Virus record (IMG/VR): IMGVR_UViG_3300025759_000081
Coordinates: 2,558 to 66,557 of that record
Reading direction: 5' to 3' (one strand)
Length of the DNA stretch: 64,000 bases
From: a virus
A program made the translations under genes and the position numbers. Numbering within the stretch: position 1 is the first letter of the stretch; each line of letters opens with the position of its first letter. Positions 4,770-56,300 of the stretch are shown here, piece after piece. The notes beneath the pieces were generated by a model. The model worked only from the letters and a program-made list of their open reading frames with translations. It was not told the origin of the DNA and searched no databases.

Positions 4770-7322
4770 ATGATTAAGAAATTTTATACAAATGTTGAAC
4801 GTTGGGGTAATCAAATTCTCTGGCGTGGTTATGATGAAGAAGGTAGATTTCAGCGTAAAGTTACGTTTAAACCTACCATGTATACCACTGGTAATCCTAA
4901 GAAAGAGTCGAGCCTATACAGATCTCTGATTGGCAACAAGCAACTCTTTCCCATGCAGTTCGATACTATGCGCGAGGCAAAGAACTTTATCGAAGAGTAT
5001 AAAGATGTCGGTGGCATGGAAATCTATGGTAATACTAATTTTATTTCTCAGTTCATTCAGCGAGCTTATCCTGGAGAAATTGAGTTTGATCAGGACCGAA
5101 TCAACATTGTTTCTTTTGATATTGAGGTTGACATTAGCGATGGCTATCCTAACGTTGATGAAGCTGACAAGGAAATCACCTCAATCGCATATAAGTCTTC
5201 CCTCTCTGACAAGTATATCCTACTCGGTCGCAAAGACTATGATAAGTATCAGACGACAACAGACATCGACCCCGATGATATCGAGTTCGTAAAGTTTGAC
5301 ACTGAGCTTGAATTACTTCGCTACTTTGTTAAAGTTTGGCGTAAGAATTTTCCGGATATTGTTACTGGTTGGAACGTCGAGTACTTCGATATCTCATATA
5401 TCGTGACTCGAATCATTAGGCTCTGTGGAGAAGAGATGGCTCAACAGCTCTCTCCCTGGGGCTCCATTCGAAAAACTGTGCGTGAGTTTTTTGGTAAACC
5501 TCAAAGCACTTATGAAATTAAAGGTCTCAGTGTTATTGATTACATGGATGCTTTTAAAAAGTTTGGGTATAAGTATGGTCCTCAAGAATCATACAAACTC
5601 GATCACATTGCTCATGTAGTTCTCGGTGAGAAAAAACTAGACTACTCTGAGTATGGTAACTTGACTGCACTCTATGAGCAAAACCCTCAACTCTATCTCG
5701 ATTATAACCTTAAAGACACTCAACTTATCCAACGAATGGAAGACGAGACAGGCTTGCTTGCACTCGTAATGACCGTTGCTTATGGTGGTGGTGTAAACTA
5801 TAACGACGCCTTTGGTACGGTTGGGATTTGGGAAACTACAATCTATCGTAGACTTATTAAAGATAAGATTGTTCCTCCTCTCAAACGAGGTCCTGGTCAA
5901 AGAGGCGGAGATTTAGTCGGTGGTTATGTTAAAGATCCCCAGGTTGGTCTACATCCGTGGGTTGTGTCTTTTGATTTAAACTCTCTGTATCCTCACCTAA
6001 TGTTACAATATAACATGTCACCTGAAACTTACATTTCGGATGTTCGTGAGTATGTAACACAAGACATGGTGCTAAAAGGCGAGTATAGTAATCAAAATCC
6101 GAGCATGTCTGTTTGTGCCAATGGCGTATGCTTTACGAAAGAGAATGTTGGAATTATTCCTCAAATCATTGATGAGTATTACAACAATCGTTCTCTAATC
6201 AAAAAGAATATGTTAAAAGTCGAGCAACAACTTGAAAATGAAAAAGATCCTCGACAAAAAGCTCTATTGAAAAAGGAAGTGAATCAGCTACATAATTCTC
6301 AGATGGCTATCAAGATTTCCATGAACTCTCTTTATGGTGCTACTGCTAACATCTACTTTCTTTACTATATTAATGAAATGGCTGAAGCAATCACTACATC
6401 TGGTCAGCTCAGCATTCGATACGCACAAAAGTCTGTCAATGATTATCTCAATAAGATACTCAAGACGGATGGAAAAGACTACATCGTGTACATCGATACA
6501 GATTCGATCTATGTTAACTTTGGCCCTTTAGTCAAAGAAGTGTTTGGCACAACTGACATTGATCGAAGTCAAGGCGAAGAGTTTCTTGACAAAATTTGTT
6601 CCACAAAAATCGAAGAGGTAATTGAAAACGGCTATATTGATCTCGCTAAGAAAATGGGTGTTTATCGACAAGCAATGGTTATGAAAAGAGAAAAGATCAC
6701 TGATAGATCAATCTTTATTGCTAAGAAACGCTATATTATGAATACACTTAATAGCGAAGGTGTACATTATGAAAAGCCTAAAATTTCAGTTACTGGTCTT
6801 GAGTCCGTGAGATCTTCGACACCTCAAATTTGCCGTGATAAGATGAAAGAAATTTTCTCTGTCATTATGAATGAAGGTGAGACCGAGACTCAACACTTTA
6901 TTGCAAACTTCAAACGTTTGTTTAAAACTTTACCAGCAGAAGATATTGCTAAGACATCAGGTACTGATAACATTGATAAGTATCGTGATCGGAAAACTGG
7001 TGGATATAAGAAAGGTTGTCCTATGCATGTTCGAGGTTGTATTCTTTATAACAATCAACTCATACAAAAAAGAATCGACAAAAAGTTCGAAGCAATTCGC
7101 TCAGGTGACAAGATCAAGTTCTTATATCTCAAGGTTCCAAATCCTTTACGAGAAAATATGGTTTCATTCCCAGGCGTTCTTCCTAAAGAACTTGGCCTCG
7201 ATGCATACATAGACTATGACAAGCAATTTGACAAAGTGTTTCTTTCTCCTATTGAAGCAATTCTTGAAGCTCTTAGCTGGTCGTCTGAAAAAGTCAATAC
7301 GCTTGAAGATTTTTTTAGTTGA
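4770..7322 (+). CDS. 43: gp43 family B DNA polymerase
   Basis: Exonuclease motifs DIEV, GWNVEYFD and YNLKD. Polymerase motifs SFDLNSLYP, KISMNSLYG and YIDTDS. C-terminal clamp-binding TLEDFF. No intein-sized insertion. Confidence 0.97.
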   Translation: MIKKFYTNVERWGNQILWRGYDEEGRFQRKVTFKPTMYTTGNPKKESSLYRSLIGNKQLFPMQFDTMREAKNFIEEYKDVGGMEIYGNTNFISQFIQRAYPGEIEFDQDRINIVSFDIEVDISDGYPNVDEADKEITSIAYKSSLSDKYILLGRKDYDKYQTTTDIDPDDIEFVKFDTELELLRYFVKVWRKNFPDIVTGWNVEYFDISYIVTRIIRLCGEEMAQQLSPWGSIRKTVREFFGKPQSTYEIKGLSVIDYMDAFKKFGYKYGPQESYKLDHIAHVVLGEKKLDYSEYGNLTALYEQNPQLYLDYNLKDTQLIQRMEDETGLLALVMTVAYGGGVNYNDAFGTVGIWETTIYRRLIKDKIVPPLKRGPGQRGGDLVGGYVKDPQVGLHPWVVSFDLNSLYPHLMLQYNMSPETYISDVREYVTQDMVLKGEYSNQNPSMSVCANGVCFTKENVGIIPQIIDEYYNNRSLIKKNMLKVEQQLENEKDPRQKALLKKEVNQLHNSQMAIKISMNSLYGATANIYFLYYINEMAEAITTSGQLSIRYAQKSVNDYLNKILKTDGKDYIVYIDTDSIYVNFGPLVKEVFGTTDIDRSQGEEFLDKICSTKIEEVIENGYIDLAKKMGVYRQAMVMKREKITDRSIFIAKKRYIMNTLNSEGVHYEKPKISVTGLESVRSSTPQICRDKMKEIFSVIMNEGETETQHFIANFKRLFKTLPAEDIAKTSGTDNIDKYRDRKTGGYKKGCPMHVRGCILYNNQLIQKRIDKKFEAIRSGDKIKFLYLKVPNPLRENMVSFPGVLPKELGLDAYIDYDKQFDKVFLSPIEAILEALSWSSEKVNTLEDFFS

Positions 7323-7359: not shown

Positions 7360-7575
7360 ATGACAATATCCTCATCGTTTGAAACAGTTGAAGAAAAAGT
7401 ATTGAACTGGGTATCAATTATGAAAGACCCGTATTATGATGGGTTTACTGGCTGGGGTCAGAAACAGAAACTGTACTTACTAAAAAAATTAGTGGACGGT
7501 ATTCTATCTGACCCCGACCTTCCTAGTTATACAGGTGAAAAAGAATGGTTAGAAGAAATGGAGATAACTCTATGA
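7360..7575 (+). CDS. Hypothetical protein
   Basis: 71-aa ORF right after a promoter, overlapping the next gene's start. No recognisable motif. Confidence 0.65.
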   Translation: MTISSSFETVEEKVLNWVSIMKDPYYDGFTGWGQKQKLYLLKKLVDGILSDPDLPSYTGEKEWLEEMEITL

Positions 7576-7970
7576 GCAAGGATTGGGTGCAAGACATTAA
7601 CGCAATGCACAAACACTATGGAATGACCGAAAAGTTCAGGGATTTCAATGGAGAACAAAAACGACAGTTTCTTGAGTTCAGAGCTAACTTCTTGCAAGAA
7701 GAGCTTGACGAACTTAAGGCTAATATGGGAAATCCCGAAGAAATAGTGGATGCACTCATTGATCTCTGTGTTGTTGCTATTGGTACACTCGACGCTTATG
7801 GCGTGGACGCTTATAAAGCTTGGGACGAAGTACTTTGGGCTAATATGTCAAAAGAAGTTGGGATTAAGGAAGGTAGACCAAATCCATTAGGTTTACCAGA
7901 TTTGGCAAAACCTGCTGGTTGGAAGGCGCCTAGCCACGTAGGTAATCACGGGGCGCTAAGGAGCTTATAA
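7572..7970 (+). CDS. All-alpha NTP pyrophosphohydrolase (MazG/DR2231-like; candidate dCTPase/dUTPase)
   Basis: FLQEELDEL...EEIVDALIDL acidic helix motif, WDEV..ANMSK, and KP.GW..P. The ATG at 7572 is in frame with the track ORF at 7545. Confidence 0.75.
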   Translation: MSKDWVQDINAMHKHYGMTEKFRDFNGEQKRQFLEFRANFLQEELDELKANMGNPEEIVDALIDLCVVAIGTLDAYGVDAYKAWDEVLWANMSKEVGIKEGRPNPLGLPDLAKPAGWKAPSHVGNHGALRSL

Positions 7971-8551: not shown

Positions 8552-9886
8552 ATGAAGCAACTCGAATATAGAAAACTCAATGCAATGGAATTGTATTTGA
8601 TGTTAGATTCCGGCGATCTGAATCCCGATCCTATCGGTCAGCGCCCACCTACATCATCTGGTCCAAAAAAATCTATTGGTATCATCAAGTCGCTAATTGA
8701 AGAATTTGGCATAGGTATGATTACTATTCGTGATATTTCCAACGATCCTATTGCGCAGGCTATATACGGCTGTAAGTATCTTGTCATCGACGGCGGTCAC
8801 CGTTGTCGTGCAATTATGCAATACTTTAAAGGTAAGATTACAGTCAACGGCGAAAGATATCTTGATTCAGATATTGATCTAAAAGATTATGACATCATTC
8901 TTGATATTCGTGAGTGTACGGCTGCTGAGTCGTGTATTTTGTTTCGTAACATTAATACGACTACTCCTACGAACTTCATGGAAATGATCATGTCTGATGA
9001 AGAATCATTGAATTGTAAGTTCATTCGAAGCCAGACCTCTTATGTTAAAGAGTATGGTAACGAAGTTCATCCTCTTTTCAAGCACCATATTGATGGTCAA
9101 GGAAATCAGAAGATTGATCACTGGGACAACAACCATATCAATCCACGAAGAAAGTGGGATGAGTATGTAGCTATCGCTTGTATTCGAGCTGCTGCAAGGG
9201 GCAACGTTGATGCTGGTCAACCAGCGATTGAAGAGTTGTCTACTGCTCCAGAAATTTCTTCACGAGTAAAAAAGGAAGTTGATAAATTCCTTAATGCTTG
9301 TGCAGACCTCCGTAAGTTTAGACAAAACGCTATGAATGCTGATGTAATGGGTGCTTTCACACTCTTTTACTTTGGCATCATGGGTGAGTTCAAGTCTGGC
9401 TTCCGCATTAACAGCAAGCGATTCTATCAAGATTTTATGCAGGCTCACTTCATACTAACTGGCAAAAAAGATAAGACTCTTGAAGATGAGATTATCCAAA
9501 CACCAGATGGAGATGCCTTTGTAAAAGAATATGTTCGTAAAAACATTAAGAACTTTGCAAACGGTCTTGATCAAGATTTTACATATACATTGTATATGTC
9601 TCAGATTAGAAATCTAGATGTAACGAAGATTGATGAAAAGCGAACAGAAACAAAAAACAACAAAGAAGAAATGCTTGCTCTTCAGGGTTATAAGGATGCA
9701 CTCACAGGCAAAGAGTTAGACTTAAACAGTTCAGCGTATAGCCATGATGTTGCGCATAGCCTTGGCGGCGAGTCGACTGACGAAAACTCTTACATTGCAG
9801 ATCAAGAGATTAACAGATTGATTGGTCTACTTGATAAGGAAAAAGCAAAAGAGTTTTTGAAACTATTGGCTGAATCGGAGGCATAA
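8552..9886 (+). CDS. DUF262/ParB-like N-terminal domain plus C-terminal HNH-like domain (GmrSD-like architecture)
   Basis: LNPDPIGQR, YLVIDGGHRCRAI (DGQ[Q/H]R-type motif) and LFRNINTTTP at the N terminus. C-terminal LQGYKDALTG..L....SHDVAHSLGG.ST.EN......EIN resembles an HNH domain that lacks the Zn cysteines. Confidence 0.65.
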   Translation: MKQLEYRKLNAMELYLMLDSGDLNPDPIGQRPPTSSGPKKSIGIIKSLIEEFGIGMITIRDISNDPIAQAIYGCKYLVIDGGHRCRAIMQYFKGKITVNGERYLDSDIDLKDYDIILDIRECTAAESCILFRNINTTTPTNFMEMIMSDEESLNCKFIRSQTSYVKEYGNEVHPLFKHHIDGQGNQKIDHWDNNHINPRRKWDEYVAIACIRAAARGNVDAGQPAIEELSTAPEISSRVKKEVDKFLNACADLRKFRQNAMNADVMGAFTLFYFGIMGEFKSGFRINSKRFYQDFMQAHFILTGKKDKTLEDEIIQTPDGDAFVKEYVRKNIKNFANGLDQDFTYTLYMSQIRNLDVTKIDEKRTETKNNKEEMLALQGYKDALTGKELDLNSSAYSHDVAHSLGGESTDENSYIADQEINRLIGLLDKEKAKEFLKLLAESEA

Positions 9887-9888
9887 AT

Positions 9889-10146
9889 ATGTTTAGATGT
9901 GTTACAATCGGTAAAGATCCACTCAAAAGTAGATGGACTAGAAAAAGCTGGCGTGGTAGTATTTGGATAAGACAAAATATTCATATGTATAATACAGTTA
10001 CTGCAACTTGTAGAGAAGCTGAATTATTGCTAATGAATTGTTTTGGATTGTGGAAAGATCGCGATGATAAAAATTATCCACGTTGGTATGTTGATGATAA
10101 AGATTTACAAGAGTTTGTTTTGAGAGAAATGAGGCGTGTAATATGA
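9889..10146 (+). CDS. Hypothetical protein
   Basis: 85 aa, 2 nt after the upstream stop, ATGA overlap with the kinase gene. Confidence 0.65.
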   Translation: MFRCVTIGKDPLKSRWTRKSWRGSIWIRQNIHMYNTVTATCREAELLLMNCFGLWKDRDDKNYPRWYVDDKDLQEFVLREMRRVI

Positions 10147-10697
10147 TACTAATTGTTGAAGGTATGGATAATTGTGGTAAGTCTACGTTAATTAAAGATC
10201 TTCGTAAAGAATACTTCACTCGTCCTACCACCATTTGTCATCACTCTACGAGTCCACCTAAGGATACTCAATTTCCTGACTTGTGGGAAGGTCGTCACTA
10301 TGGCGACCTTTTCAGCTTGTTCACTAGTATTGTTACAGAAAATCATTATGATATAGTCTTAGATAGATTTCACTTAGGTGCTATCGTCTATGGTGCTAAG
10401 TATAGAAGCTCAGATCCTCATATGATTAAAACTATTGATAAACAATATCTTCAAAATAATTTTGAATCTGCTCTTTTATTATTGACAGACTCTAATGAAG
10501 GGATTATGTCACGTGATGACGGAATGACTATTGAACAAACGTCAGAAGAATATGATGATGTTAGGCGTAGGTTTATAGATGCTTTTAGTGAGTCTCATTG
10601 CCCAAACAAACTTCATATTGATATTACAAAAGACGTTAAAACTATTGACAAAGTATTGCCAAATGTGTTAGAATGGCTTAACAAAATTGAGGAATGA
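10143..10697 (+). CDS. Deoxynucleoside monophosphate kinase (thymidylate-kinase-like; candidate hm-dCMP kinase)
   Basis: ILIVEGMDNCGKST P-loop, VLDRF motif, and its position next to dCMP hydroxymethylase. Confidence 0.8.
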   Translation: MILIVEGMDNCGKSTLIKDLRKEYFTRPTTICHHSTSPPKDTQFPDLWEGRHYGDLFSLFTSIVTENHYDIVLDRFHLGAIVYGAKYRSSDPHMIKTIDKQYLQNNFESALLLLTDSNEGIMSRDDGMTIEQTSEEYDDVRRRFIDAFSESHCPNKLHIDITKDVKTIDKVLPNVLEWLNKIEE

Positions 10698-11374
10698 AAA
10701 TGCAAACTGTAAGTGACATCCGCAAAAAGTTAATGATAAAACGCATTGAAAAAGATTACGTTATTGATAAGACCGGTGTCAAAACAATTGAACTCATCGG
10801 TGAATCATTTATTGCCGACGAAGATTGGATTATTCGCAAGCCTAACTTAGAATACGTTAAACGTGAACTTGATTGGTATCATAGTCAATCATTATATGTA
10901 AATGATATTCCAGGAGATACTCCACAAATTTGGAAACAAATTGCTTCTGACTTCGGCCAAATCAATTCAAATTATGGTCATCTTATTTGGTCAGAAGAAA
11001 ATGGTCATCAATATAATCATGTCTTGCATGAATTGAGAAATAATCCTGATAGTCGTAGAGCAACTATGATTTATAATCGGCCGAGCATGCATCTTGACTA
11101 TAACCGAGAAGGTATGAATGATTTTGTTTGTACATATGGAAATCAATTCATGATCCGTGATGATAAACTCGTATCACATTATATTATGCGATCTAACGAC
11201 GCCGTGTTTGGTTATTGTAACGATGTTCATTGGGCAATGCATGTACATGACATGCTCGCTTATGACTTAAAAATTGAAAAAGGCGACTTAATTTGGACAG
11301 CTTCATCTTTTCATATCTATGAAAGACATTTTAAATTCTTAGACAAAATGTTTGGATTAAAAGAAGATGAGTAA
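10694..11374 (+). CDS. 42: dCMP hydroxymethylase (T4 gp42-like, thymidylate synthase fold)
   Basis: INSNYG, NPDSRRA, DFVCT (catalytic Cys), MRSNDAVFGYCND and SSFHIYERH. It has Asp at the position that confers dCMP specificity in gp42, where thymidylate synthase has Asn. Confidence 0.88.
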   Translation: MKMQTVSDIRKKLMIKRIEKDYVIDKTGVKTIELIGESFIADEDWIIRKPNLEYVKRELDWYHSQSLYVNDIPGDTPQIWKQIASDFGQINSNYGHLIWSEENGHQYNHVLHELRNNPDSRRATMIYNRPSMHLDYNREGMNDFVCTYGNQFMIRDDKLVSHYIMRSNDAVFGYCNDVHWAMHVHDMLAYDLKIEKGDLIWTASSFHIYERHFKFLDKMFGLKEDE

Positions 11375-11840
11375 TAATTGGGATACGAGATTTTTATATC
11401 TTGCAAAAGAAGTTAGTACGTGGTCTAAAGATCCAAGTACTCAAATAGGGGCCGTTATTGTAAATGAGAATCGAAGAATTCTTGCTACAGGATATAATGG
11501 GTTTCCTCGTGGTATTTTTGATAAAGATGAACGACTAAATAATCGAGAAGAAAAATATAAACTCGTTGTCCACGCTGAAATGAACGCCATCTATAACGCT
11601 ACATTCAATGGCGTTTCTCTTGATAAAGCAACTTTATATGTGTGGGGTTTACCTGCTTGTTCTGAATGTGCAAAAGGTATTATCCAAGTTGGCATTAAAA
11701 AGGTTGTAATGGCTGACATAAATAAAGTTGACAGGTGGCAAAAATCGTTTGAGATTTCTAAAACTTTATTTGATGAAGCAAGTATTGAATATAAAATGGT
11801 AGAAGTGAATGGATTACAAAAGAATAGCGATAATAAGTAA
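11367..11840 (+). CDS. cd: dCMP deaminase
   Basis: SKDPSTQIGAVI, TGYNGFPRG, HAEMNA and PACSECAK zinc-deaminase motifs. Confidence 0.92.
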   Translation: MSNNWDTRFLYLAKEVSTWSKDPSTQIGAVIVNENRRILATGYNGFPRGIFDKDERLNNREEKYKLVVHAEMNAIYNATFNGVSLDKATLYVWGLPACSECAKGIIQVGIKKVVMADINKVDRWQKSFEISKTLFDEASIEYKMVEVNGLQKNSDNK

Positions 11841-12657
11841 CTGGCGAACTGGAAGTACTTATTTTACTATGAAAAAAGCACACGAACATGGTGTGCCTTT
11901 TATGGGTGAGTTATTTCATGTATCTAGACCATTTTCAATTGGAGAAGTTCCTCGTGGTTGGATCACCGAAGAGTCCATTCGAGAAGAATTAAGGCATCTT
12001 CCTGCAAAAGAAGCTTCAGACACAATGATTATTGAAGCTCTTGAAAATGGCCACCCAGGTTGTTTTAATTTACGTCCCGGTCAAATTGAAGACAAATATT
12101 GGCCTTACCTTTTTGAAAATCTTGATAAAGTCTATTACCTCTATAGAAGAAATTGGGATGCCCAAGTTAGAAGTTTTGTATCGGTTGATCTTAGAGGAGA
12201 CTGGGGTGTAACTGGTTGGTTTTTTCAAAGACCTGGAGATGAACACACTCCACCAGACCATACAGACGAAGAAATGAGAAATCAAAAAATACTTGGGACT
12301 TGGTATAATCGTACTAAACCTTACATATCTAAAGTAAGACCAACGTTTGATTTGCTTGAAGATAGAGCAGCCCTTCTTATTAGAGAATACATAAGAATGT
12401 ATCGTTGTTATAAGCAACACCCAGGTGAATTAGTTGCTTATGAAGATTGGTACACCGGTGAACAATATAGACCAGACAATAAGCACGTTTATTATCTTGG
12501 TGAAGAAGAGTTAATGTATCCAAAGTTTGACACCGTAGGTCTTTTTGAACGAGACGAATATGGCGTAATTAAAAAGGAACATACTCCTCACCCAGATCCG
12601 TGGGGCCCTCGAAATATTGAACCATCTATAGATCCTTGGAGTAAAAATAAATTATGA
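11809..12657 (+). CDS. Sulfotransferase-like protein (Stf0-like P-loop fold)
   Basis: IAIISNWRTGSTY resembles the 5'-PSB loop, followed by GELF. YYLYRRNWDAQVRS resembles the 3'-PB motif. LVAYED lies near the C terminus. Confidence 0.6.
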   Translation: MDYKRIAIISNWRTGSTYFTMKKAHEHGVPFMGELFHVSRPFSIGEVPRGWITEESIREELRHLPAKEASDTMIIEALENGHPGCFNLRPGQIEDKYWPYLFENLDKVYYLYRRNWDAQVRSFVSVDLRGDWGVTGWFFQRPGDEHTPPDHTDEEMRNQKILGTWYNRTKPYISKVRPTFDLLEDRAALLIREYIRMYRCYKQHPGELVAYEDWYTGEQYRPDNKHVYYLGEEELMYPKFDTVGLFERDEYGVIKKEHTPHPDPWGPRNIEPSIDPWSKNKL

Positions 12658-13886
12658 AAAACATTTCTATTATTATGGCCCGCGGCATTGAAGGCTGTGG
12701 TGTTACTAAGTATACTGTCGAGCAAGTTAAATGGCTCAAAAAGAATGGGTACAACGTAAAAGTTTTTGCTTCAAAAGACAAATCTTTTTCTCGCAAGAAT
12801 GCTCATGTACACGATTTTGAAGTGTTTAAATTTGCAGATGATACCCTTCTTGATGATATGATCACTCGATGTAATGAGTCTGATCTTATCATTATTAATT
12901 CTCTACCAGCCAAGGGGAACGGTAGAGGTAAAGGTGTAGGAGATAAAGCACTCGACAATTGGGTAAAGGCACTCAAGTCATTTAAGAAGCCCGTAGTGCT
13001 TATTCAACACGACCATACGGTTTACTCAATCAAAAGAAATGGTGCTCTAGAAGAAGCTATCGATGCTGCTAGCATTATCTTTGTTCATTCTACAAATAAC
13101 GACTTTTCTCAGTATGTAAAAGAATACGTTGGTGATACTGGTCTTTCTTCATTTTTTGGTGAAAGCTCTGATAAAAAAATCTTAGCCTTTCAACCCGGCA
13201 TTGACTTTGACGAACATCGAGAAAAGTATTGGAAAGATTGTAAAGAACAAGATCGATTACATCATAAGTGGATTGGTCGTACTACAAGCTGGAAAGGTTA
13301 TCAACTTATGTTTGATTGGCATACCAACTGGCTTCAAGGCGCAGGGTATGCTACTACATTCGAAGGAATTGAAAAGTCGCCGGCTTGGTTATCGTTTAAA
13401 GAATGCGGTGAATTTTTTGATGAAATGAAAAACCATCCTAATGATGTTAACATTACAGAAAGATATGGAGAAAAAGCATCTGTCTTTAGTACATTCATCC
13501 AAGACGAGCTAATGGAAAGAATGTCGAAGGTTGGATTTGGTTATCAGCTCAGTGTACTCAAGCCAAAATATATTGAACGATCAATTGAATATACCCATCA
13601 AGAAATTGTTGCAGCTGGCGCTGTTCCAGTGTTTCGAAAAGAATATGGTGAAGTATGCATACATAGAGTAACCGGCGATCCACTTATCCATTGTAAAAAC
13701 AACGGTACGCTTTGGATAGGTAATGATGTTGAAAGTCGAGCCGGTGTACTTGATCACATTAAACAACTCAATGATGATGGTTATCGAGACGCATATCGAG
13801 AAGCAGCATTTGAATTTTATAAGCAACATCAAGACGCTTCAAATACCTTTGAAGATTTGATGACAAACATTAAGGAAAACCTATGA
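12654..13886 (+). CDS. agt: DNA alpha-glucosyltransferase (T4 a-gt-like, GT-B)
   Basis: MARGIEGCGVTK, KDKSFSR, QHDH, YWKD, KWIGRTTSWKG, ERMSKVGFGYQLS, RSIEYTH and AFEFYKQHQD match T4 a-gt as remembered, along its whole length (410 aa). Confidence 0.9.
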   Translation: MKNISIIMARGIEGCGVTKYTVEQVKWLKKNGYNVKVFASKDKSFSRKNAHVHDFEVFKFADDTLLDDMITRCNESDLIIINSLPAKGNGRGKGVGDKALDNWVKALKSFKKPVVLIQHDHTVYSIKRNGALEEAIDAASIIFVHSTNNDFSQYVKEYVGDTGLSSFFGESSDKKILAFQPGIDFDEHREKYWKDCKEQDRLHHKWIGRTTSWKGYQLMFDWHTNWLQGAGYATTFEGIEKSPAWLSFKECGEFFDEMKNHPNDVNITERYGEKASVFSTFIQDELMERMSKVGFGYQLSVLKPKYIERSIEYTHQEIVAAGAVPVFRKEYGEVCIHRVTGDPLIHCKNNGTLWIGNDVESRAGVLDHIKQLNDDGYRDAYREAAFEFYKQHQDASNTFEDLMTNIKENL

Positions 13887-15076
13887 TTAAACACGCATCC
13901 ATTGTACCACTTATTGGAGGTGAAACAATAGGTTCTGAAATCGCTTTTGGCGAAGCACCTACCTATATGATGTCATACGAGGCGTTTGAAGGGAATGATG
14001 CTCATGCCCGTAACTATTACGGTGGTGTTCCATACTACGTTCTAGATAAAGGAGAGAGACCTACAGAGAGTGTTGATGTAGTATCTTCTGTATGCCCGTG
14101 TGCTGGACTATCTCAATTATCTCACGGATTTGGTGATGATAATCCAAACAATCAATGGATGCCTAAGACAGCATCATACGTATTAGAACAAATTAAACCA
14201 AAAGTATTCTGGGGTGAAAATGCACCAGGATTTGCAGGTAAGATTGGTGAAACGGTACGAAATCAGTTGAAGCAAATTGGAAAAGAAAATGGATATACAA
14301 TGAGCGTATATCGTACAAAAACTCTTCTTCACGGTGGACCACAAATTCGAGAGAGATCATTCTATTTCTTTTGGCGAGATGATAAGGTACCTTTATTGAG
14401 TTGGTTCAATAAACCTCACAAAAAGATTGAAGACGTACTTATGAGTGTGAAAGGTAATAACTTTCAAACAGATGTTATTAATCCAAAGACTCCATCAAAA
14501 GATGATCTCTATTATAAGTTTGCACTTGAGCACATTCATGGAGGCATGGAGCATAAAGACTTTGCTCAAATTGTTGAACCTCAAAAGGTGAGGAACGCCG
14601 ATATTTTTTCATATATAGAACGTATGGGTTATGATTATACTCAAGTTGGTGAATGGATGGCATCTCAAGGCTACGATAAAGAAGTTGAGAAATGTAAATA
14701 TCGAGTTGAAAAGCTTAAGGCCGGTGGTAATATTATGAGAAGAGGTACAATTATTCCTAAGGATTACATCGGGGCTTTCGTTGGCCACTATCCTACAATG
14801 TTAACTCATCCAGAAGAAGATCGTTATATCAATTATCGAGAAGCAATGACGATCATGGGTTTGCCTGAAGACTTTGAATTATTGAATCCGAAGAAGAGCG
14901 CGAATCATATCTGTCAAAATGTACCTGTGCAGACTGCCGCAGACATGGCGTCGGAAGTTAAAAAATATTTGAACAATGAGCTTCCACTAGTTGACACCGA
15001 CTATGTTTTACAGTATAATAAAGGTCAAAAATCTGAATACATTGAAAAAAAGTCAACTCTTGAGGCGTTTATATGA
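13883..15076 (+). CDS. C5-cytosine DNA methyltransferase homologue with non-canonical motif I
   Basis: Motif IV VCPCAGLS, VI GENAPG, VIII QIRER, IX RYINYREAMTIMGLPEDF, X CQNVPV. Motif I reads VPLIGG instead of FxGxGG. Confidence 0.78.
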   Translation: MIKHASIVPLIGGETIGSEIAFGEAPTYMMSYEAFEGNDAHARNYYGGVPYYVLDKGERPTESVDVVSSVCPCAGLSQLSHGFGDDNPNNQWMPKTASYVLEQIKPKVFWGENAPGFAGKIGETVRNQLKQIGKENGYTMSVYRTKTLLHGGPQIRERSFYFFWRDDKVPLLSWFNKPHKKIEDVLMSVKGNNFQTDVINPKTPSKDDLYYKFALEHIHGGMEHKDFAQIVEPQKVRNADIFSYIERMGYDYTQVGEWMASQGYDKEVEKCKYRVEKLKAGGNIMRRGTIIPKDYIGAFVGHYPTMLTHPEEDRYINYREAMTIMGLPEDFELLNPKKSANHICQNVPVQTAADMASEVKKYLNNELPLVDTDYVLQYNKGQKSEYIEKKSTLEAFI

Positions 15077-15684
15077 AACATTTAATATTTGATTTTGAAA
15101 CAATGGGCTCAGACCCTAGTAATTGCGCAGTCGTTGACGTTTCTGCAATGGTGTTTGATTGGGATAGATTTGAAACAAATCCTTACACTTGCAAAGATAT
15201 TAGTATGACTCGAAAATTTAAATTGTCTGTTAGCGATCAAGTAAAAAACTATGGATTTAAAATAGAACAAAGTGTACTTGATTTTTGGGAATCTCAACCT
15301 AAAGAAGTAAAGAAAAACATTGTTCCCAAGAAGACTGACTTGTCAGTTAAAGAATTCGTCCAAGAGTTTCATGATTTCTTAATTGACGCCGGCCAAATTG
15401 GTCATTGGTGGACTCGATCAAATACGTTTGATCCTGTTATATTAACTCGGCTCTTCGCTGCAGAAAATAAAAAGTCTCACATGGAAGAGTACCTTAAGTA
15501 TTATCTCGTTCGTGATACACGTACATGGATTGATGCTAAACTTAATTTCCCTAAAAAGAATGGATTTATAATTGATGAGTGGCAAGAAAGTTTTAAAGCT
15601 CACGATAGTTCTTGGGATATTTTAATTGATGTGTTGCGATTACAAAAATTACATCGGGTAGAATTTGATTTAGAGGATGAATAA
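15073..15684 (+). CDS. dexA: DexA-like DEDDh 3'-5' exonuclease
   Basis: LIFDFET, SNTFDPVIL, VRDTRTWI and HDSSWDILID motifs. Confidence 0.8.
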   Translation: MKHLIFDFETMGSDPSNCAVVDVSAMVFDWDRFETNPYTCKDISMTRKFKLSVSDQVKNYGFKIEQSVLDFWESQPKEVKKNIVPKKTDLSVKEFVQEFHDFLIDAGQIGHWWTRSNTFDPVILTRLFAAENKKSHMEEYLKYYLVRDTRTWIDAKLNFPKKNGFIIDEWQESFKAHDSSWDILIDVLRLQKLHRVEFDLEDE

Positions 15685-16637
15685 TGACAGAAGAAAATAC
15701 TAAAATTACTATAGACCAGCTTCAACCTTATAGTCTTTTTCTTGCCACTCCAATGTATGGTGGGCAATGTACGGGAACTTATACAAAAGCTGTTACAGAA
15801 TTATCAATGATGTGTGCGACAAACGGAATTAAAATTAAACATTACTTTTTATTTAATGAGAGCTTAATACAACGTGCAAGAAACTATTGTGTAGACGAAT
15901 TTATGAGATCTGATTGCACTCATTTATTGTTTATTGACGCAGACGTATCTTTTAATCCAAAAGATGTTCTTACAATGTTAGCTATTCAGATTTCTAATCC
16001 AGAAAAATATGATATTGTAAGTGGCGCTTATCCAAAGAAAACGATTGCTTGGGAAAAAGTAGTGACGGCTGTGCGCAATGGAAGGGCGGAAAACTCTCCT
16101 TTCGATCTTGATCAATACATTGGTGATTTTACGTTTAATCCTATTCAAAATGGTGAGCAACAAAAATTTGCTGTAACAGATCCTATTGAAGTAGCAGAAG
16201 CTGCAACTGGGTTTATGCTCATACCTAGATATGCTCTTGAAAAATACAGAGATGAATATCCAGAATTATCGTATAAACCAGATCATGCAAGAACAGAAAA
16301 CTTTGATGGAACAAGAGAAATAACCGCTTTCTTTGATTGTGGCATTGATCCGGAATCAAAAAGATATCTTTCAGAAGACTATTTCTTTAGTCATAAAGCA
16401 AGAGCAATTGGTCTTAATTTGTGGATGTGTCCTTGGATTAATCTTAACCACATGGGTTCGTATGTGTTTAAAGGTAATCTTCCAGCCGTTAGTTCATTAC
16501 CTAATACGTCTGCGACTGCTTCAAAACAATCTATGAAAAGTTATTATCAACAAAAAGACGATTTAACTGGGATAAAAGCAAGTCCCTTACCATCCACTTT
16601 AAGAAACCAAAAGAAAAGAAATCGTAAAAAGTCATGA
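15684..16637 (+). CDS. GT-A fold glycosyltransferase
   Basis: LFLATPMYGG, NESLIQRARN, HLLFIDAD (DxD), ATGFMLI, YLSEDYFF, and a late H.G motif. Confidence 0.8.
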   Translation: MTEENTKITIDQLQPYSLFLATPMYGGQCTGTYTKAVTELSMMCATNGIKIKHYFLFNESLIQRARNYCVDEFMRSDCTHLLFIDADVSFNPKDVLTMLAIQISNPEKYDIVSGAYPKKTIAWEKVVTAVRNGRAENSPFDLDQYIGDFTFNPIQNGEQQKFAVTDPIEVAEAATGFMLIPRYALEKYRDEYPELSYKPDHARTENFDGTREITAFFDCGIDPESKRYLSEDYFFSHKARAIGLNLWMCPWINLNHMGSYVFKGNLPAVSSLPNTSATASKQSMKSYYQQKDDLTGIKASPLPSTLRNQKKRNRKKS

Positions 16638-19875: not shown

Positions 19876-20277
19876 ATGGAAGAGGATATTTTTAAAGGTG
19901 TGGGCGTTGAAATACGTTTACCTACCCAAGATAGTTTCTTAAAAATTAAAGAAACTCTTACCCGTATTGGGATTAGTTCAAGGAAAGAAAAAAAGCTCTA
20001 TCAGTCTTGTCATATCTTACACAAAAAAGGTAGATATTCGATTTTACATTTTAAAGAGTTGTTTATTCTCGATGGCAAGAAGAATACGTTTACTGAAGAA
20101 GATAAGGCTCGTAGAAATACTATTGTGAATCTTTTAGAAGAATGGGAGTTAATTGAAATTATTGATAAAAACCAAACAGAAGATCCAATAGCATCGTTAA
20201 ATCAAATTAAAATCATTCCTTTTAAAGATAAAGAAAATTGGGATCTAGCAGTAAAGTATAATATAGGGAAAAAGTGA
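19876..20277 (+). CDS. regA: RegA translational repressor
   Basis: FLKIKETLTRIGISSRKEKKLYQSCHILHK.GRY.ILHFKELF.LDG and W.L..KY.IG. Confidence 0.96.
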   Translation: MEEDIFKGVGVEIRLPTQDSFLKIKETLTRIGISSRKEKKLYQSCHILHKKGRYSILHFKELFILDGKKNTFTEEDKARRNTIVNLLEEWELIEIIDKNQTEDPIASLNQIKIIPFKDKENWDLAVKYNIGKK

Positions 20278-20897
20278 ATAAGTATATCATTCCGCCCGCG
20301 GAAAGAGATATGCTTCCCGATGATATTCATGGTTTAACAGTTTTAGATTTTGGTGCCAAAGCAAATCCGCGTGGCACTTATCGGGAAGAATATCTTAATT
20401 TATATAATGTGAGGGAATATCATTGTGTTGATATTCAAGCTATACATGGTTCTCATGTAGTAGATTTAAGATCAGAAACTGCTGCAAAGAGAATACAGGA
20501 ATTGACAGGTCATAAAACTTTTGATTTATTATGTAACGTTGGCACAAGTGAACACGTTTCGATTCAAAGAACATTCTATCAAGCTGTGCATAAACTTGCT
20601 CATCCTGGCAGTTACATTTTTCATTGGACTCCAATGGCTGAGAAAATGTTATGGCATGGTGCCCACGGTTCTCTATGGCACTGTCAACCAGAATTTTTTG
20701 AATGGTTGGCAAATAGAAACGGATATGAAATTGTTAAGAGAGCTTTTCCTCGAAATGAAGTTTCTGCTGTATTATATAAGGTAAAAGAAAAAAAAGATTT
20801 TCAATGGCATCCAGCTTGGACGGATACTTTTTGGAAGAATCCAAATTACGTTGATTTTGACAACATTAATGCACATAAACAAAAGGCTATACTATGA
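20274..20897 (+). CDS. Class I SAM-dependent methyltransferase-like protein
   Basis: VLDFGA (motif I-like), VDIQ, VVDL and FDLLCNVGTSEHV. GTGA overlap with regA. Confidence 0.6.
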   Translation: MNKYIIPPAERDMLPDDIHGLTVLDFGAKANPRGTYREEYLNLYNVREYHCVDIQAIHGSHVVDLRSETAAKRIQELTGHKTFDLLCNVGTSEHVSIQRTFYQAVHKLAHPGSYIFHWTPMAEKMLWHGAHGSLWHCQPEFFEWLANRNGYEIVKRAFPRNEVSAVLYKVKEKKDFQWHPAWTDTFWKNPNYVDFDNINAHKQKAIL

Positions 20898-21343
20898 AAT
20901 TTATTATTGAATCAGAAAGAGCGGTCGATCCTAAATTAGATTCTTGGAATTTTATTGATTTTGCACCAGTGTTTGGAGCAGGCCAAAGAATGTCGGCCTA
21001 CAACGCTTGGAACAAAGAATTTCCCATTGTTTCTAAAACGACTCGTAATGCTCCTAGCTTGCACTTACCACCAGAAACTCGGATGGCCTTGCCTACTGGC
21101 ATTGTTGTTGAAGATTTACCAGAAGATCATATATTAGAAGTGTCAGTTATTTCATCGGCTACGATGCAAATGGGTATACATTGCCCTGCTCCTTTACGAG
21201 TAATGAATGGAGAGCCTATTTTTATTAATGTACATAATATATCAGATACTCTGGTACAAATCACTTCTGGGGCATATCTAGGCCTAGGAAGGTTAATTCA
21301 TGTACCAAAAGATGAAGTACTTTCTGTAAAATCGTATAAATAA
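20894..21343 (+). CDS. Degenerate trimeric dUTPase-fold protein
   Basis: LPPETRMALPTGI.V..P..H...V...SS...MGI and IFINVHN....VQITSG follow the dUTPase pattern, but the RS and G.ID.DY.G catalytic motifs are absent. Confidence 0.45.
   Translation: MKFIIESERAVDPKLDSWNFIDFAPVFGAGQRMSAYNAWNKEFPIVSKTTRNAPSLHLPPETRMALPTGIVVEDLPEDHILEVSVISSATMQMGIHCPAPLRVMNGEPIFINVHNISDTLVQITSGAYLGLGRLIHVPKDEVLSVKSYK
21335..21342 (+). promoter_or_regulatory. Late promoter TATAAATA upstream of hsp20
   Basis: Exact consensus overlapping the upstream stop. Confidence 0.7.
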
Positions 21344-50354: not shown

Positions 50355-53300
50355 ATGGCTAAGATTTCAGAATTACCTCCTATTACTGGTGCCAATACCA
50401 GAACAGAAGACCTGTTCGTTATCGTCAATCTTGTTCAAGGTGACGATGGTACTAGTAATATTACTAGAAAGGAATTAGTCGAAGCAATTCAGTACGAGAT
50501 ATTCTCTCGCATTACAATCACTGGAGGTACTATCTCTGGTGTAACCATGTTTAATTCTCTTATTCGTAACGTCGTCATTGACGATTCGAATATAGAAGAC
50601 TCTTTCATAACTCGCACAGATTTTAATGAAGGTACTTTAAGAAATTCTGATGGTGACAATTTAGATATTATTAATTCAACGTTTAATGAAGGTACATTAG
50701 ACGATAACGATCAAACAAATCAACGAATTTCGGATTCTTCATTTACCCTTGGCTCGATTACAGATAGCACAGCAGCTAATGTAACAATCACAGATTCTTC
50801 ATATAGTGATGGCGTAATTTTTGACGTTGTTGCTAATACGATGACGATTACTGATTCATCTTTTGATGACGGTACTGCAAATAATATTGTTATCACCAAC
50901 TCTGAGTTTAATGATGGCACTGGTAACAATGTCGTACTAACAAACTCTACTATCGATGATTCGACAATCACTGATTCAACTGCCAACAATGTTTCGATTA
51001 CTCAATCGACATTTACTGATGGTGCAATCTTCGATAGCACAGCAAACAACGTTACAATTACACAATCAGTATTTGATCTTGGTGACGTTACTAATTCAAA
51101 TGGTGATAATTTAACTATCATTAACTCTTCGTTTGCTGATGGTACAATTACTACAACTGATATTACTAGTAGCAATTTTTCGAATGGTGATATTTTTGAT
51201 TCTAATGCCAACAACGTAACAATTACACAATCATTGTTTACTGATGGTAATATCACCGATTCTAATGCCAACAACGTAACAATTACACAATCATTGTTTA
51301 CTGATGGTAATATCACCGATTCTAATGCTAATAATGTAACGATTACGCAATCATTATTTACTGATGGCACTATTACAGATTCAACCGCTAATAATGTAAC
51401 GATTACTCAGTCAGATTTTAGCGATGGAACTGGAAACAACAATTTATTTACTAGCACCACACTCGATAATTCTATTATCATTAACTCCGATTTTAGTGAT
51501 GGTACTGGTAATAATAACGTATTTACTAATACAACGTTAGATCAATCAACTATTCAAAACTCTATTGGTCTCGATCTTAATATTAGCGAATCAAAGTTTG
51601 ATGAAGGTACTTTATCTCAATCTACCTTCTCAGGCGGTCAAATTATTGACTCGGAACTTGCTAACTTCGAAATGGAGTTGGAAGAAATCTTTGATCCTAA
51701 TATAGACGAAGAGTCTTGGTTTGCATTAAAGAACGTGCAAACCGGTGAAACTGAAAAAATTACTTATAGACAGTTCTTTGATGAGATTTCTAAAACAGTT
51801 TCTCAAGCTCTTAAAATTCACGTAGATGCATCATCTGGTAGAGATGAGTGGCCGGGTAGTTCACTTCAGCCCGTTAAAACATTGGAAAGAGCTTGTGAAT
51901 TAGCCCTTGAAAAGGCCGGCGGTGTATTTGATAGAAACGATGTTAATAATGCTGTACATATTTCTGTTGGCCCAGGGACTTATTACACTAAGGGTAATCT
52001 TGCAATTCCAGATGATTGTTCTGCAACATCTACATCTGGACAATACGCCACAGTAATCGAGGCTTTGCCTGGTTACGAAAACAGCAACTGTTGGCTAGTA
52101 GGTTCAGGTTGTTATTTACAGGGTTTCTCATATACGAATTGGAAAGTTGACAACTTCGATTATCCAGAAGGTGGATTTGCTGTAGCTTATCGACCCGGCG
52201 CAAAACTAAGACGTTCACCATATTTGAGGGACTCATCTCAGCTATCTAACTTCTTACGTGCTGATGTAGAACCACCTCTCAACCCCTTCAATTCTAAGGG
52301 AACTATTGCTGACTTAGGTTTTGAATTCATTTTAGAAGTTGGACATACAGGACAATTTATTGAAGGTGATTGGATTAAATTCTCAAGCGGCGCTGAAGCC
52401 TATATTTCTTGGGACGATTCAATGGACGCCGCATTAGGTTTGCCTGGTGACTTAGCCACTTTGAGAAAAATCAGAGTTCGCAACCTTAAAAATGGTCAAG
52501 GCTACTCGATAGGAGATACTGTTTTAAGTCAATCTGGCGGCATTGGTACTATTGAATCTATTGGTATTGATGACTTTCCAAATAGAGAAGTTGGACGTGG
52601 TGGAGGTTGTTTCTTAGGAGATCGCCGTGTACTCGATCCAGATTCACTTTATACTTATTGTTTGTGTTTTGGTTTTACACCGCGTACTCAAAACGGCATC
52701 GGATATGTTGCTCGAGATGGTGCTGGTGTTAACGGTATTGGTTCATTGTCAATCTTCACACGTTGTGCATTTTATGCATTGAACGGCGGTCAGGTCACGT
52801 TGAACAACTCGGGTTCTCAGTTTGGTGACATTTCAATGAGAGCTAAAGGATCTACACGAGTCTTCCAACCAAAAGGGATGAACGAAGCATTACTTCTTAA
52901 GAACGAAGCTTTTGCTGATACAATTCAAGAAAATGCAAACACTATCATTGATGACGTCGTTGATTTCTTAACTGCAAACACCGCAGACGGTGGATTAGGT
53001 TATACCGGATATAATGCAGGAAAATGTGAAAGAGACGCTGGAATTATTATTGATGGTGTTGGATTAGACGTACAATTAAATTCAAACTATTGGGGTAGAC
53101 TTGCAGGTATTACATATCGAAGCCCAATTTCATATACAGTTATTAATGACCAATTAGAACCAACCATAGGTGCTAATCAATATCTTCAAGAAAGAATTCA
53201 AAACATATTTTCTACTAACTCGGAAATTATATCTCGAGCAAATACGAGTTTCCAAGAACTTTATAATATTACTGAATACGGTGAAGAATATGATAATGGA

Positions 53301-56300
53301 TTAATTTTAACGCCTACCGGCAATACTCAAATGACTGCCGCTGCAGAGTTAATCCAAGACAACAAAGAATTTATTCAAAACGAATTTATCGATTGGATTG
53401 ATAATAACGATTTATATTTTACTTATGATAGTGCTAAGTGTCGTAGAGATACCGAGGATTATATTATTCCTGCTGTTTATTACGATACATTATTAGACAC
53501 TAACTATAATTCAATCACAGCTGGTGGCGCATACTATATGTCAACGGCTGCTAAAGTTATTGACAAACAAAAAGAAGAAACAATATCAGCTTATAAGAGG
53601 CTTAAAGATCAAATTAACTTGGTCGTAGAAAATATTTCTCCTGAAGCTACAATTAAAACTGATAAATCAATGGACTATATCATTGATATTTTAGCTAATG
53701 CTGGAATTAAGTTTAGTCCTACCAATGCAACATATGATCCTATTACTGGATATATGATGTTAAAAATTGGAACTCATAGTTTACAAGTTGGACAAAAGAT
53801 TTTAATTGCTCCAAATAGCATTACATTCACTTGTTTGAGCGATAATAATGTTGTACAAATTTCTCATCCTCGAGTAACAGATCCAATTTATAATAAGCCA
53901 GTTTATATTGAAGCTGTAACTGGAACAACTATTACAGTTAACGTTGGTAATGCAAACGGTTATACTGGTGTTCATACGTTTGTAAGTGCTCAAGAAAATT
54001 CAATTTCAATCGTCGGCGAGGAAATTACTTTTAGTGATAACCCTGCTATTGACGTATCGAGAAGAAACGCTCGTAAACAACTTCAGTCAAATCGTGGTTA
54101 TATTGAAGATAATTTAGTTGGTTGGATCAATAATAACTATTATGTTTATGATCAAAACAAATGTAAGAGAGACACCAGCGAATATATTTTACCTGCTGTT
54201 CAAAGAGATCTTATATTAGGAACTAACTATAACTCTGTTCAGGCTGGAAAAACTTATTATACGGGCATTGCTTCTAAAGTAATTAATGATCAAAAAGTTG
54301 AAACATCATCTGCGTTCAGTGATCTTAAGTCTAATGTTCTTGCTCTAGTTTCTGATACTTCAAAAGATAGAGCTAATACAGCGTTTAATGAAATTATCGA
54401 TATTCTTGATAATGGATTAGGAAACGCAGATACGATTACATGGTCTGATCCAGCTTCTTATAGAGCAAGGTATACACCAACCTTTGCAACTTATAATCCT
54501 ACAAATGGCCAGGCAGTTATTACTCTCGGTAATCACAGCGTTGCTGTTGGAGAATATATTGAAATTCTTCCATACGGATTAACGTTTACTTGTTCGCAAG
54601 ACGGAGATGCAACGGAGCATTCTTATCCTAGAATTGGTGATGGAAACTACTTAGTACCAGTTGTCGTAACAGCAAATACTGCAACATCAATTACTTGTAA
54701 TGTAGGTGTAGGTGCTGGTGGAGTTCATACTTTTGTAAGCGCGCTTGAACAATCTGTTTCTTCTAGAAGTTATAACTCTAATGGACAATATGCAAGAGAG
54801 CAATTACAAGCAAATAGAAGTTTCTTGCAAGAAGAAGTAATTGCTTATCTTGACGCCAATTACTTTACATTCGATGGCGATAAGTGTTCTCGAGATACTG
54901 GTCTTATTTTAGATGCGGTTCGTAGAGATGTTGCAACTGGATCTAACTATAATTCGGTTTTTGCTGGATTAGCGTATCGATCAGGTAACGCTTCAACAGA
55001 AGTCGTGATTAATGAACAGCTTACAGAAACTGTAGCAGCAATTACTTATGTCAAGCTTCAAATTGCTCAAGAATTATCAGGTGCTTCTTTAACAAGATCT
55101 AACGCTGCGTTTGATGAAATTATTGATATTCTTAATAACGGCACAGGTAACGCCGATCCTATTACATTCGGCACTGCATCAGTTAGCGCTAACGAAGGGC
55201 AAGCTCAAGCTACACTTCAGGCAAACAAAACATTTTTACAGGCTGAAATTACCGCTTGGTTAGCTATCAACCATCCTAATCTAGTTTATGATCAAGCTAA
55301 ATGCGAAAGAGATGTTGGATATATTGTAGACTCAGCCTCTTGGGATATTTACAATGGTTCTAATGCAGCGTCAATTAATAATGCTAGACTTTATTTTGAT
55401 AACGCTGTAGCAATTTTACCAGAAGATCAAAGAGTTCCAACTTCAGAAGCGTTTAAGCATTTGGCCTACGTTGCTGGAGAGATTGTTCGAAATAACAGTG
55501 TTGTTCCTAGCGAGGGTAATGCACAATCTCAAACTCTTACGTCAGACGCTGGTATTACAGTTTCAGGAAAAGTACGATCATTAATTAGAATCGTAAGTGA
55601 TGCTATCGAAAGTGAAAGATTCGAGTTCCCGGCTTATGTAGAACCAACAACAGAAGCTGGTTTTGAAAATGCAGTAAGAGATATTTTTGGCCAGACTTTA
55701 CGTCTTCAAGATGACGTTATTGAGTATTTACAAAGAGATCAAAACGGTCTTGCTTATAACGAATCTAAGTGTAAAAGAGACATTGGTCTTATAGTTGACG
55801 CAATATGTAAAGATGTCGAATACGGTGGTAATGAATCTTCTATTGAAGCTGCTTTATATTATTTTGAAGCAAGATCTTCTTTTGATATTGCTGATAGCAC
55901 ACCTATCATTGAAAAGTTCAATATTCTTCCTCCTGAACAAAGAGCTCCAACACAGGCTGCGTTTACACATTTAGCAAGTGTTGCGAGTGATATTGTACAA
56001 GAAATTTCTGTTACACCAACTGCTGGTAATCTTATAACACAAGACACTACTGGAACCCCAGCAAACGCTGCAACTGGCGCAATTGTTTCTGATCTTATTA
56101 CAATTATTGTTGATAATATTGGAATTGGATCACCAGATAATATTCCTAGTATCATTGAACCTAACTTTGATCCTAATAGAACTGTAGCTAGACAAGCAAT
56201 TCAAGCCAATAAAGAATTCTTAACAAATGAAGTTATTAATTTCATCAACGACAAATACTTTGTTTATGATGATGCTAAGTGTTCAAGAGATGTTGGTTAT

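Follow-up and report, generated by a model that had tools for sequence, protein, structure and literature searches.

A virus-dominated branch of cytosine-C5 methyltransferase-fold enzymes with a variant cofactor motif, linked to cytosine replacement modules of marine phages

The window analyzed here covers 64 kb out of the 68.3 kb of an IMG/VR contig (IMGVR_UViG_3300025759_000081) with an estimated completeness of 32%. The source is an uncultured marine T4-like phage, and the genes of the window include those for DNA polymerase B, gp45, gp44/62 and RegA. At 13883-15076, on the + strand like the genes at 7545-7970 and from 10143 to 16637 described below, the window carries a gene for a 397-aa protein with the fold of the C5-cytosine methyltransferases (C5-MTases; PF00145, E = 1e-19), in which motif I, the motif that binds the cofactor S-adenosylmethionine (SAM), takes the form VPLIGG. 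We refer to this protein and its relatives as PLIGG enzymes. Our analyses show an enzyme predicted to be intact, constrained and capable of covalent catalysis, with a rebuilt cofactor side and with a fixed place, independent of the sugar used, in a module that would replace deoxycytidine (dC) by 5-hydroxymethyl-dC and then glycosylate it. Because thousands of relatives share the same kind of gene module, the enzyme probably has a role in phage DNA modification that has gone unrecognised. Tentatively, we read it as an active DNA cytosine-C5 enzyme that may methylate those cytosines of the phage DNA that escape replacement.

A C5-methyltransferase should lack a substrate where C5 is already substituted, yet the family counts about 2,400 clusters at 90% identity, and in the abundant marine phages that carry it the gene almost always closes a module for cytosine replacement and glycosylation. 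Cultured carriers, namely the TIM5-like cyanophages and Pseudoalteromonas phage vB_Psh_XG4, make the question directly testable.

Fold, motifs and conservation of the PLIGG enzyme

The PF00145 match covers profile positions 59-323 only, motif I lying outside it, and the NCBIfam dcm model gave 28 bits, far under its cut-off of 100. The predicted two-domain C5-MTase fold was confirmed for an AlphaFold2 model built from 114 family members (mean pLDDT 95.5; Foldseek E = 8e-14), which superposed on M.HaeIII (1dct; Z = 27.3, model residues 2-363 on chain residues 1-324), on M.HhaI (Z = 25.6, 1-366 on 11-325) and on CmoX (8yf3; Z = 24.0, 1-366 on 18-372).

An earlier note, made from the sequence of the window alone, had described the catalytic PC, EN(A) and QxRxR and motifs IX-X as intact and motif I as VPLIGG rather than FxGxGG. 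Reading of the translation and alignment to HhaI and HaeIII bear this description out, to which a Gly-to-Gln change in motif X has to be added. Motif IV with the predicted catalytic nucleophile (P72-C73, 14096-14101) aligned to the PPC of solved methylases, motif VI (E112-N-A-P115, 14216-14227) to the ENV of HhaI and HaeIII, and motif VIII (Q154-I-R156-E-R158, 14342-14356) to the QxRxR of the same two enzymes. Motif IX is represented by R319-E320...M325-G-L-P328, and motif X (Q345-N-V-P348, 14915-14926), canonically G-N, aligned to GNAVP in HaeIII and GRMVP in CmoX. For the variant motif I (V8-P-L-I-G-G13, 13904-13921; canonical F-x-G-x-G-G), the alignment with the Dcm family that the note had proposed was run by profile-profile comparison (hhalign, probability 92.9%): IVPLIGG falls on LFAGIGG, with F replaced by V, A by P and the first G by L, and structural superposition on HhaI and HaeIII gave the identical register. 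The Dcm-family profile was needed for motif I, hhalign against a single Dcm sequence having covered motifs IV-VIII only.

The remainder of the cofactor side is partly altered and partly kept. After S/T31, the last residue of strand 2, come an aromatic residue (Y/F/W32) and a variable position 33, and no conserved counterpart was seen of the motif II Glu, which in canonical enzymes binds the ribose hydroxyls; in the following helix, D/E39 (97%) aligns to the second Asp of the HaeIII sequence NEYD, in a register that is provisional. The features kept are D55 (the Asp of GDI in HaeIII; acidic in about 79%), the aromatic residue 32 (94%) and N346 (95%), which we take to be the canonical positions holding the adenine or lying near the methyl group. 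When the profile of the N-terminal 78 residues and the N-terminal peptide were compared with PDB sequences, no solved methylase was matched.

Relatives numbered 2,386 at E < 1e-5 in a 90%-identity database, and an exhaustive HMMER scan gave 840 representatives of 50% clusters at E < 1e-3. The Atlas clusters of the family are labelled 100% viral. Matches among cultured phages fall into three groups only, the TIM5-like cyanophages, XG4 and, more weakly, Bacillus phage G, and searching the literature for the PLIGG motif brought up no relevant paper. Conservation was measured over 125 full-length representatives with 31-59% identity. The variant residues are nearly fixed (98% for P9, L10, G12 and Q345, 97% for G13, 95% for N346), as are the catalytic ones (100% for E112, R156 and R158, 99% for C73, 98% for N113), while the target-recognition region is variable, resembling that of sequence-specific methylases. 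Where both genomes of a pair bear the DNA alpha-glucosyltransferase (AGT) gene, the methylase shows higher identity than AGT or the sliding clamp (76, 62 and 44%, respectively, between the window and locus L098), and it appears to be under strong purifying selection. Decay of the motifs in a pseudogene was ruled out by the conservation of the variant residues at 95-98% and by that of the protein beyond the clamp. Also, two loci (L073, 5951-8321, and L064) carry two diverged PLIGG methylase genes in tandem.

Association with cytosine replacement and switching of the sugar cassette

The methylase gene lies three genes downstream of a T4 gp42-type dCMP hydroxymethylase gene (10694-11374), a thymidylate synthase (TS) homologue that matched T4 structures at E = 1e-74 and is 54% identical to T4 gp42. 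Alignment of its GYCND to the T4 gp42 structures puts Asp at the ThyA N177 site, and an acidic residue stands three positions before the catalytic Cys (NDFVC), at the ThyA L143 site. Directly upstream of the methylase is the AGT gene (12654-13886; PF11440, E = 2e-77; phrog_2888, E = 2.5e-95), whose stop overlaps the methylase start (ATGA); an AAGGA ribosome-binding site lies 8 nt upstream of the ATG at 13883, and the methylase stop in turn overlaps the start codon, at 15073, of the following gene. The methylase gene is predicted to be translationally coupled to the AGT gene. Both parts of a T4-type module, a dCMP-specific TS homologue with the two acidic residues and an AGT, are thus present. 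The phage is predicted to carry a toolkit for 5-hydroxymethylcytosine (hmC), and the premise of the earlier note, an hm-dCTP pathway, stands. The same operon includes a dCMP deaminase gene (11367-11840; PF00383, E = 2e-21; phrog_174) and a dNMP/thymidylate kinase-like gene (10143-10697; PF02223, E = 1e-6; phrog_761, E = 7e-17), and a MazG-like nucleotide pyrophosphohydrolase, candidate dCTPase of the module, is encoded at 7545-7970 (PF01503; phrog_671) and kept upstream of the TS gene in relatives. TS homologues of the gp42 type in RB69 and DLP3 make 5-hydroxy-dCMP and not 5-hydroxymethyl-dCMP (PMC13326640). The product of the homologue in the window could likewise be 5-hydroxy-dCMP, the two not being separated by the sequence; C5 would be occupied either way.

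The linkage extends well beyond the window. Among 62 IMG/VR loci with at least 50% identity, a same-strand gp42 homologue was present in every locus with enough upstream DNA, and a reciprocal search seeded with gp42 found the methylase in 16 of the 18 loci with downstream room. The usual order is gp42/TS (Asp type), dCMP deaminase, a variable stretch, methylase, exonuclease, phrog_1574 protein and gp45. Distant members, with 30-33% identity, show the same linkage pattern: TS, AGT and two tandem methylases in L073; TS, deaminase, NTP-transferase, GT-B-like protein and methylase in L077; TS, NTP-transferase, GT-like protein and methylase in XG4; GT-B-like protein, NeuB and methylase in L075. The pattern was also seen on twelve contigs binned into bacterial metagenome-assembled genomes (MAGs). 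Cyanophage S-TIM61 is not T4-like and has these genes scattered over its genome, yet its only 'ThyA' bears Asp at the specificity position, and it also has a gene of the AGT family. Because of this Asp-type 'ThyA' and the AGT-family gene, the cultured TIM5-like cyanophages probably carry C5-modified, glucosylated cytosine. The gene annotated 'ThyA' in S-TIM61 (5766-6602 on the - strand, record position 6624-7010) reads GVPLD, with Asp at the N177 position.

At least four types of cassette precede the methylase: AGT; an NTP-transferase with a GT-B-like protein; an epimerase with a UDP-galactopyranose mutase; and an inositol-1-phosphate-synthase-like protein with a protein bearing the helical domain of the 5-hmdU DNA kinase (HMUDK; PF18723) and a 380-aa protein. 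The methylases split into two deep clades on a maximum-likelihood tree, which requires 6 changes of the AGT label and 21 of all labels together; a methylase bound to one sugar type was ruled out by this switching of cassettes within methylase clades. Near-identical backbones carry either clade: in L095, gp42 and gp44 are both 83% identical to those of the window and the methylase is 32% identical. Since the cassette switches and the methylase stays, the job of the methylase would be independent of the sugar used. The link of PLIGG to gp42 and AGT that the earlier note had raised was thus recovered in part: gp42-type TS and sugar genes accompany the methylase in almost every phage locus, AGT itself being one of several cassette types.

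The fourth cassette recurs in many loci (L046, 5047-9954; L125, 6622-12670; L048, L050, L051, L053, L083-L088, L097 and L112), with a myo-inositol-1-phosphate-synthase-like gene, an HMUDK-helical-domain gene and a gene for a conserved protein of 360-380 aa that contains a GDSH motif. A cytosine hypermodification not yet described may be encoded by this cassette, which in L112 occurs with no methylase found within 10 kb. A small gene of the UDG superfamily (PF03167, E = 3e-8) often adjoins the dCMP deaminase gene, as in L046 (4524-4952), and has homologues in L043, L056, L098-L100, L105-L109 and L113. Also, a 425-kb contig binned as a Pacearchaeota MAG (L082) carries a PLIGG methylase with NeuB-like and epimerase-like genes and, 7 kb from the methylase, an Asp-type TS-like gene; the contig could come from a jumbo phage or from a virus that was binned wrongly.

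On one contig, a PLIGG enzyme is fused to the HMUDK helical domain. In the fusion protein (P0399, 889 aa), PF18723 (E = 6e-11) is joined to a PLIGG enzyme that shares 36% identity with the window protein. Its contig also encodes a PolIII-alpha replicase, an Asp-type TS homologue, a dUTPase-like protein, an inositol-phosphate synthase, an FkbM-type methyltransferase and an epimerase. The N-terminal part of P0399 has a homologue (E = 3e-25) in T4-like relatives, a 426-aa protein encoded by a gene of its own two positions upstream of the methylase; in many T4-like relatives the HMUDK helical domain is a separate gene one or two positions upstream. The fusion fits a role on hydroxymethylated pyrimidines. 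These HMUDK-like partners lack the Walker A motif, so that their kinase activity is doubtful, and neither the window's own record nor S-TIM61 or XG4 had a PF18723 match.

Possible functions of the PLIGG enzyme

In the reading that we prefer, which remains tentative, the PLIGG enzyme would be the fixed, sugar-independent part of a module whose replacement components would be gp42, the kinase, the MazG-like pyrophosphatase and the deaminase. Cys73 would attack C6, Glu112 would protonate N3, and Arg156 and Arg158 would hold the flipped base; a methyl group from SAM, or from a close SAM-like donor, would then pass to cytosines with a free C5, so that no unmodified cytosine would be left exposed in the phage DNA. 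The variant motifs I, II and X would mean that the pocket receiving the ribose and methionine end of the cofactor is constructed in another way. Replacement of cytosine would in that case be partial, the remainder being covered by 5-methylcytosine (5mC). Retention of the methylase through changes of cassette fits such a role at the level of the base, for example methylation of leftover cytosine, at least as well as it fits chemistry on hmC. Further points in favour are the superposition on HaeIII and HhaI over the entire chain, the near-invariant catalytic Cys, Glu and RxR, the retained D55, aromatic 32 and N346 (Arg in CmoX), the tandem paralogues, the target-recognition region of sequence-specific appearance, the eukaryote-like branch with CXXC and C2H2 fingers, and the strong constraint on the protein.

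Several observations weigh against leftover-cytosine methylation. The motifs I-III side, taken as the 78-residue profile, is unmatched to any solved methylase, and throughout the family the motif I Gly is replaced by Leu, its stacking Phe by Val or Ile and the motif X Gly by Gln, with no conserved motif II Glu. The MazG-like pyrophosphatase and the kinase imply that replacement may be near complete, leaving little free cytosine, and T4, to our knowledge, manages without such a C5-methylase-like enzyme. Finally, the near-exclusive link to Asp-type TS and the one fusion to a 5-hmdU-kinase domain hint at hydroxymethylated bases.

The latter observations lead to a second explanation, possible though on balance doubtful, in which the enzyme works on hmC or an activated derivative of it, or uses a one-carbon donor other than SAM. 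In a first version, Cys73 would add to C6 of hmC, giving an exocyclic methylene intermediate to which a nucleophile is coupled; in a second, cytosine left over in the DNA would be converted into hmC, enabling its glycosylation. The bulky residues in place of the motif I and X glycines and the loss of the motif II Glu, with the new residues conserved at 95-98%, speak for it, as do motifs I-III that are undetectable against solved methylases, the link to Asp-type TS and DNA sugar genes, which spans at least five lineages including the TIM5-like cyanophages with their dispersed genes, and PF18723, fused in P0399 and separate upstream in many T4-like relatives. Precedents are the in-vitro hydroxymethylation and thiol coupling by C5-MTases (PMC7176277) and the use of carboxy-SAM by CmoX (PMC12783734). 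However, the enzyme retains N346, D55 and the aromatic residue behind strand 2, as would be expected with an adenosyl-methyl donor; it also accompanies plain AGT cassettes, which need no activation chemistry; the HMUDK-like partners lack Walker A and the fusion is on a single contig; and no candidate cofactor-synthesis gene is conserved alongside. If it held, which we consider doubtful, the PLIGG enzymes might be the first natural enzymes of the C5-MTase fold that do not simply methylate cytosine with SAM. They might then catalyze a universal finishing step of the glycosylated-cytosine DNA in thousands of marine phages, either on hmC through an exocyclic methylene, in some phages with an HMUDK-like partner, or by transfer of a hydroxymethyl group from a non-SAM donor onto leftover cytosine. 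The methylase fold would thereby have been rebuilt, and a natural class of enzymes for the labelling and sequencing of hmC would become available. The suggestion of the earlier note that the enzyme is repurposed to derivatise or edit hmC or to use another cofactor accordingly keeps the hmC linkage, the intact gene and the altered cofactor motifs on its side, and D55, aromatic 32 and N346 against it; either of its alternatives, repurposing or methylation of residual cytosine, may hold.

It is unlikely that the enzyme is a SAM-dependent methylase turned on the host, marking or disabling its chromosome, for example for methyl-dependent nucleases. With the C5 of the phage's own cytosines blocked, a promiscuous C5 methylase would be safe, which would explain its near-restriction to C5-substituted phages; its catalytic residues are intact, and its gene lies in an operon of nucleotide metabolism of the early type, which would be expressed when host DNA is still present. 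Against this, the altered cofactor motifs are left unexplained, we know of no precedent for such a function, and no methyl-dependent nuclease has been shown, the ORF (open reading frame) at 8552-9886 having no Pfam match and being absent from many relatives.

Slightly less likely still is an ordinary orphan methylase of anti-restriction type, whose adjacency to the hmC genes is inherited T4-like synteny. Most carriers are indeed T4-like, with strongly conserved gene order, and eukaryote-like members, known from short contigs, are unlinked to hmC genes. The MetaGPA tables are in line with this, DNA_methylase not being among the Pfams enriched in fully cytosine-modified contigs, where TS, deaminase and PRA-PH are; the text of the MetaGPA paper does not mention methyltransferases, and for the PLIGG clade this result neither supports nor excludes any reading. 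Inherited synteny is hard to reconcile with a link that holds at 31% identity and on different backbones (the PolIII-alpha phage L125, the TIM5-like cyanophages and XG4), with methylase alleles of two deep clades in the same slot of near-identical backbones, and with the methylase in 16 of 18 gp42-seeded loci with room. Identity with CmoX was ruled out by Asn346 in place of Arg at the key position, by VCPC in place of SPPC and by the lack of a CmoA, an NCBIfam scan having given no CmoA-type family for the only nearby methyltransferase-like ORF of the contig, which is 32% complete.

Neighbouring genes, eukaryote-like members and known systems

Between the deaminase and AGT genes lies a cassette gene of 282 aa (11809-12657) for which Pfam, PHROG and NCBIfam scans gave no family match. 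Downstream, the methylase gene is coupled to a gene for an Rv2179c-like 3'-5' exonuclease (15073-15684; PF16473, E = 2e-17; phrog_255), followed by that of a conserved 317-aa protein of DxD type (15684-16637; phrog_1574, E = 7e-57), which comes after the methylase in most T4-like relatives, at 44-64% identity. The first gene of the operon (8552-9886, 444 aa) has a weak match to a PHROG of unknown function and none in Pfam at E 0.01, which gives no support to a GmrSD-like identity, and is present in some relatives only.

Further along, a 149-aa ORF (20894-21343) is a divergent relative (33% identity) of a dUTPase/DCD-like protein encoded after regA in sister phages, and is a candidate gp56-like dCTPase on the basis of this resemblance; it had no Pfam or PHROG match, PF00692 included. 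The 207-aa ORF before it (20274-20897) matches Methyltransf_23 weakly. In the structural region, one ORF of 4,141 aa extends over 50355-62780.

Some members found on short marine contigs (P0210, P0172, P0180, P0395 and P0188; L080, L123 and L124) are long PLIGG proteins with CXXC or C2H2 fingers and Lys/Glu-rich low-complexity tails. They are probably DNA methylases of eukaryotes or giant viruses within the PLIGG subfamily, an indication that the PLIGG type is able to work as an ordinary DNA methylase.

With M.HhaI, M.HaeIII and Escherichia coli Dcm, the PLIGG enzyme shares the fold, PC, the ENV-type Glu, QxRxR, motif IX and the Asn of motif X. It differs from these canonical C5-MTases by IVPLIGG, by QN, by the absence of a conserved motif II Glu and by Ala or Ser in place of the Gln of PCQ, as well as by a largely helical target-recognition region, the absence of a restriction partner and its location in an hmC module.

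CmoX, the DNA cytosine C5-carboxymethyltransferase of Synechococcus phage S-B43 (PDB 8YF3), uses carboxy-SAM, keeping Phe25, Glu47 and Asp69 for the cofactor and contacting the transferred carboxyl group through Arg350 (PMC12783734). It is likewise a phage C5-methylase homologue, there serving hypermodification, and the only solved chain with profile similarity before motif IX (239-360, E = 8e-14), whereas the window protein has Asn346 and VCPC instead of SPPC, with no CmoA or CmoY neighbour.

In another phage system (PMC8256090), a C5-methylase is reported to make 5mC on DNA, which TET oxidises to hmC before a glycosyltransferase acts. A methylase gene beside DNA glycosyltransferase genes is common to both systems, the hydroxymethyl group here coming, as predicted, from a TS homologue at the nucleotide level. 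No TET/JBP gene is among the annotated ORFs, the whole window not having been scanned for one.

The earlier note had also stated that C5-MTases can handle hydroxymethyl groups and thiols in vitro, and the literature agrees: without SAM, M.HhaI hydroxymethylates cytosine and M.SssI couples thiols to hmC (PMC7176277). These reactions, in which fold and covalent mechanism are the same and the active site tolerates a hydroxymethyl group at C5, are in-vitro side reactions of canonical enzymes. We know of no natural enzyme that uses them.

The closest parallel to the module as a whole is the hmC pathway of T4 (gp42, gp1, gp56 and AGT/BGT), to which the window corresponds by a gp42 orthologue, an AGT, a dCMP deaminase and a kinase-like gene in one operon. 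T4 differs in having no C5-methylase homologue, and the module described here in its variable sugar cassette and in a MazG-like enzyme that replaces, or is added to, the gp56 type.

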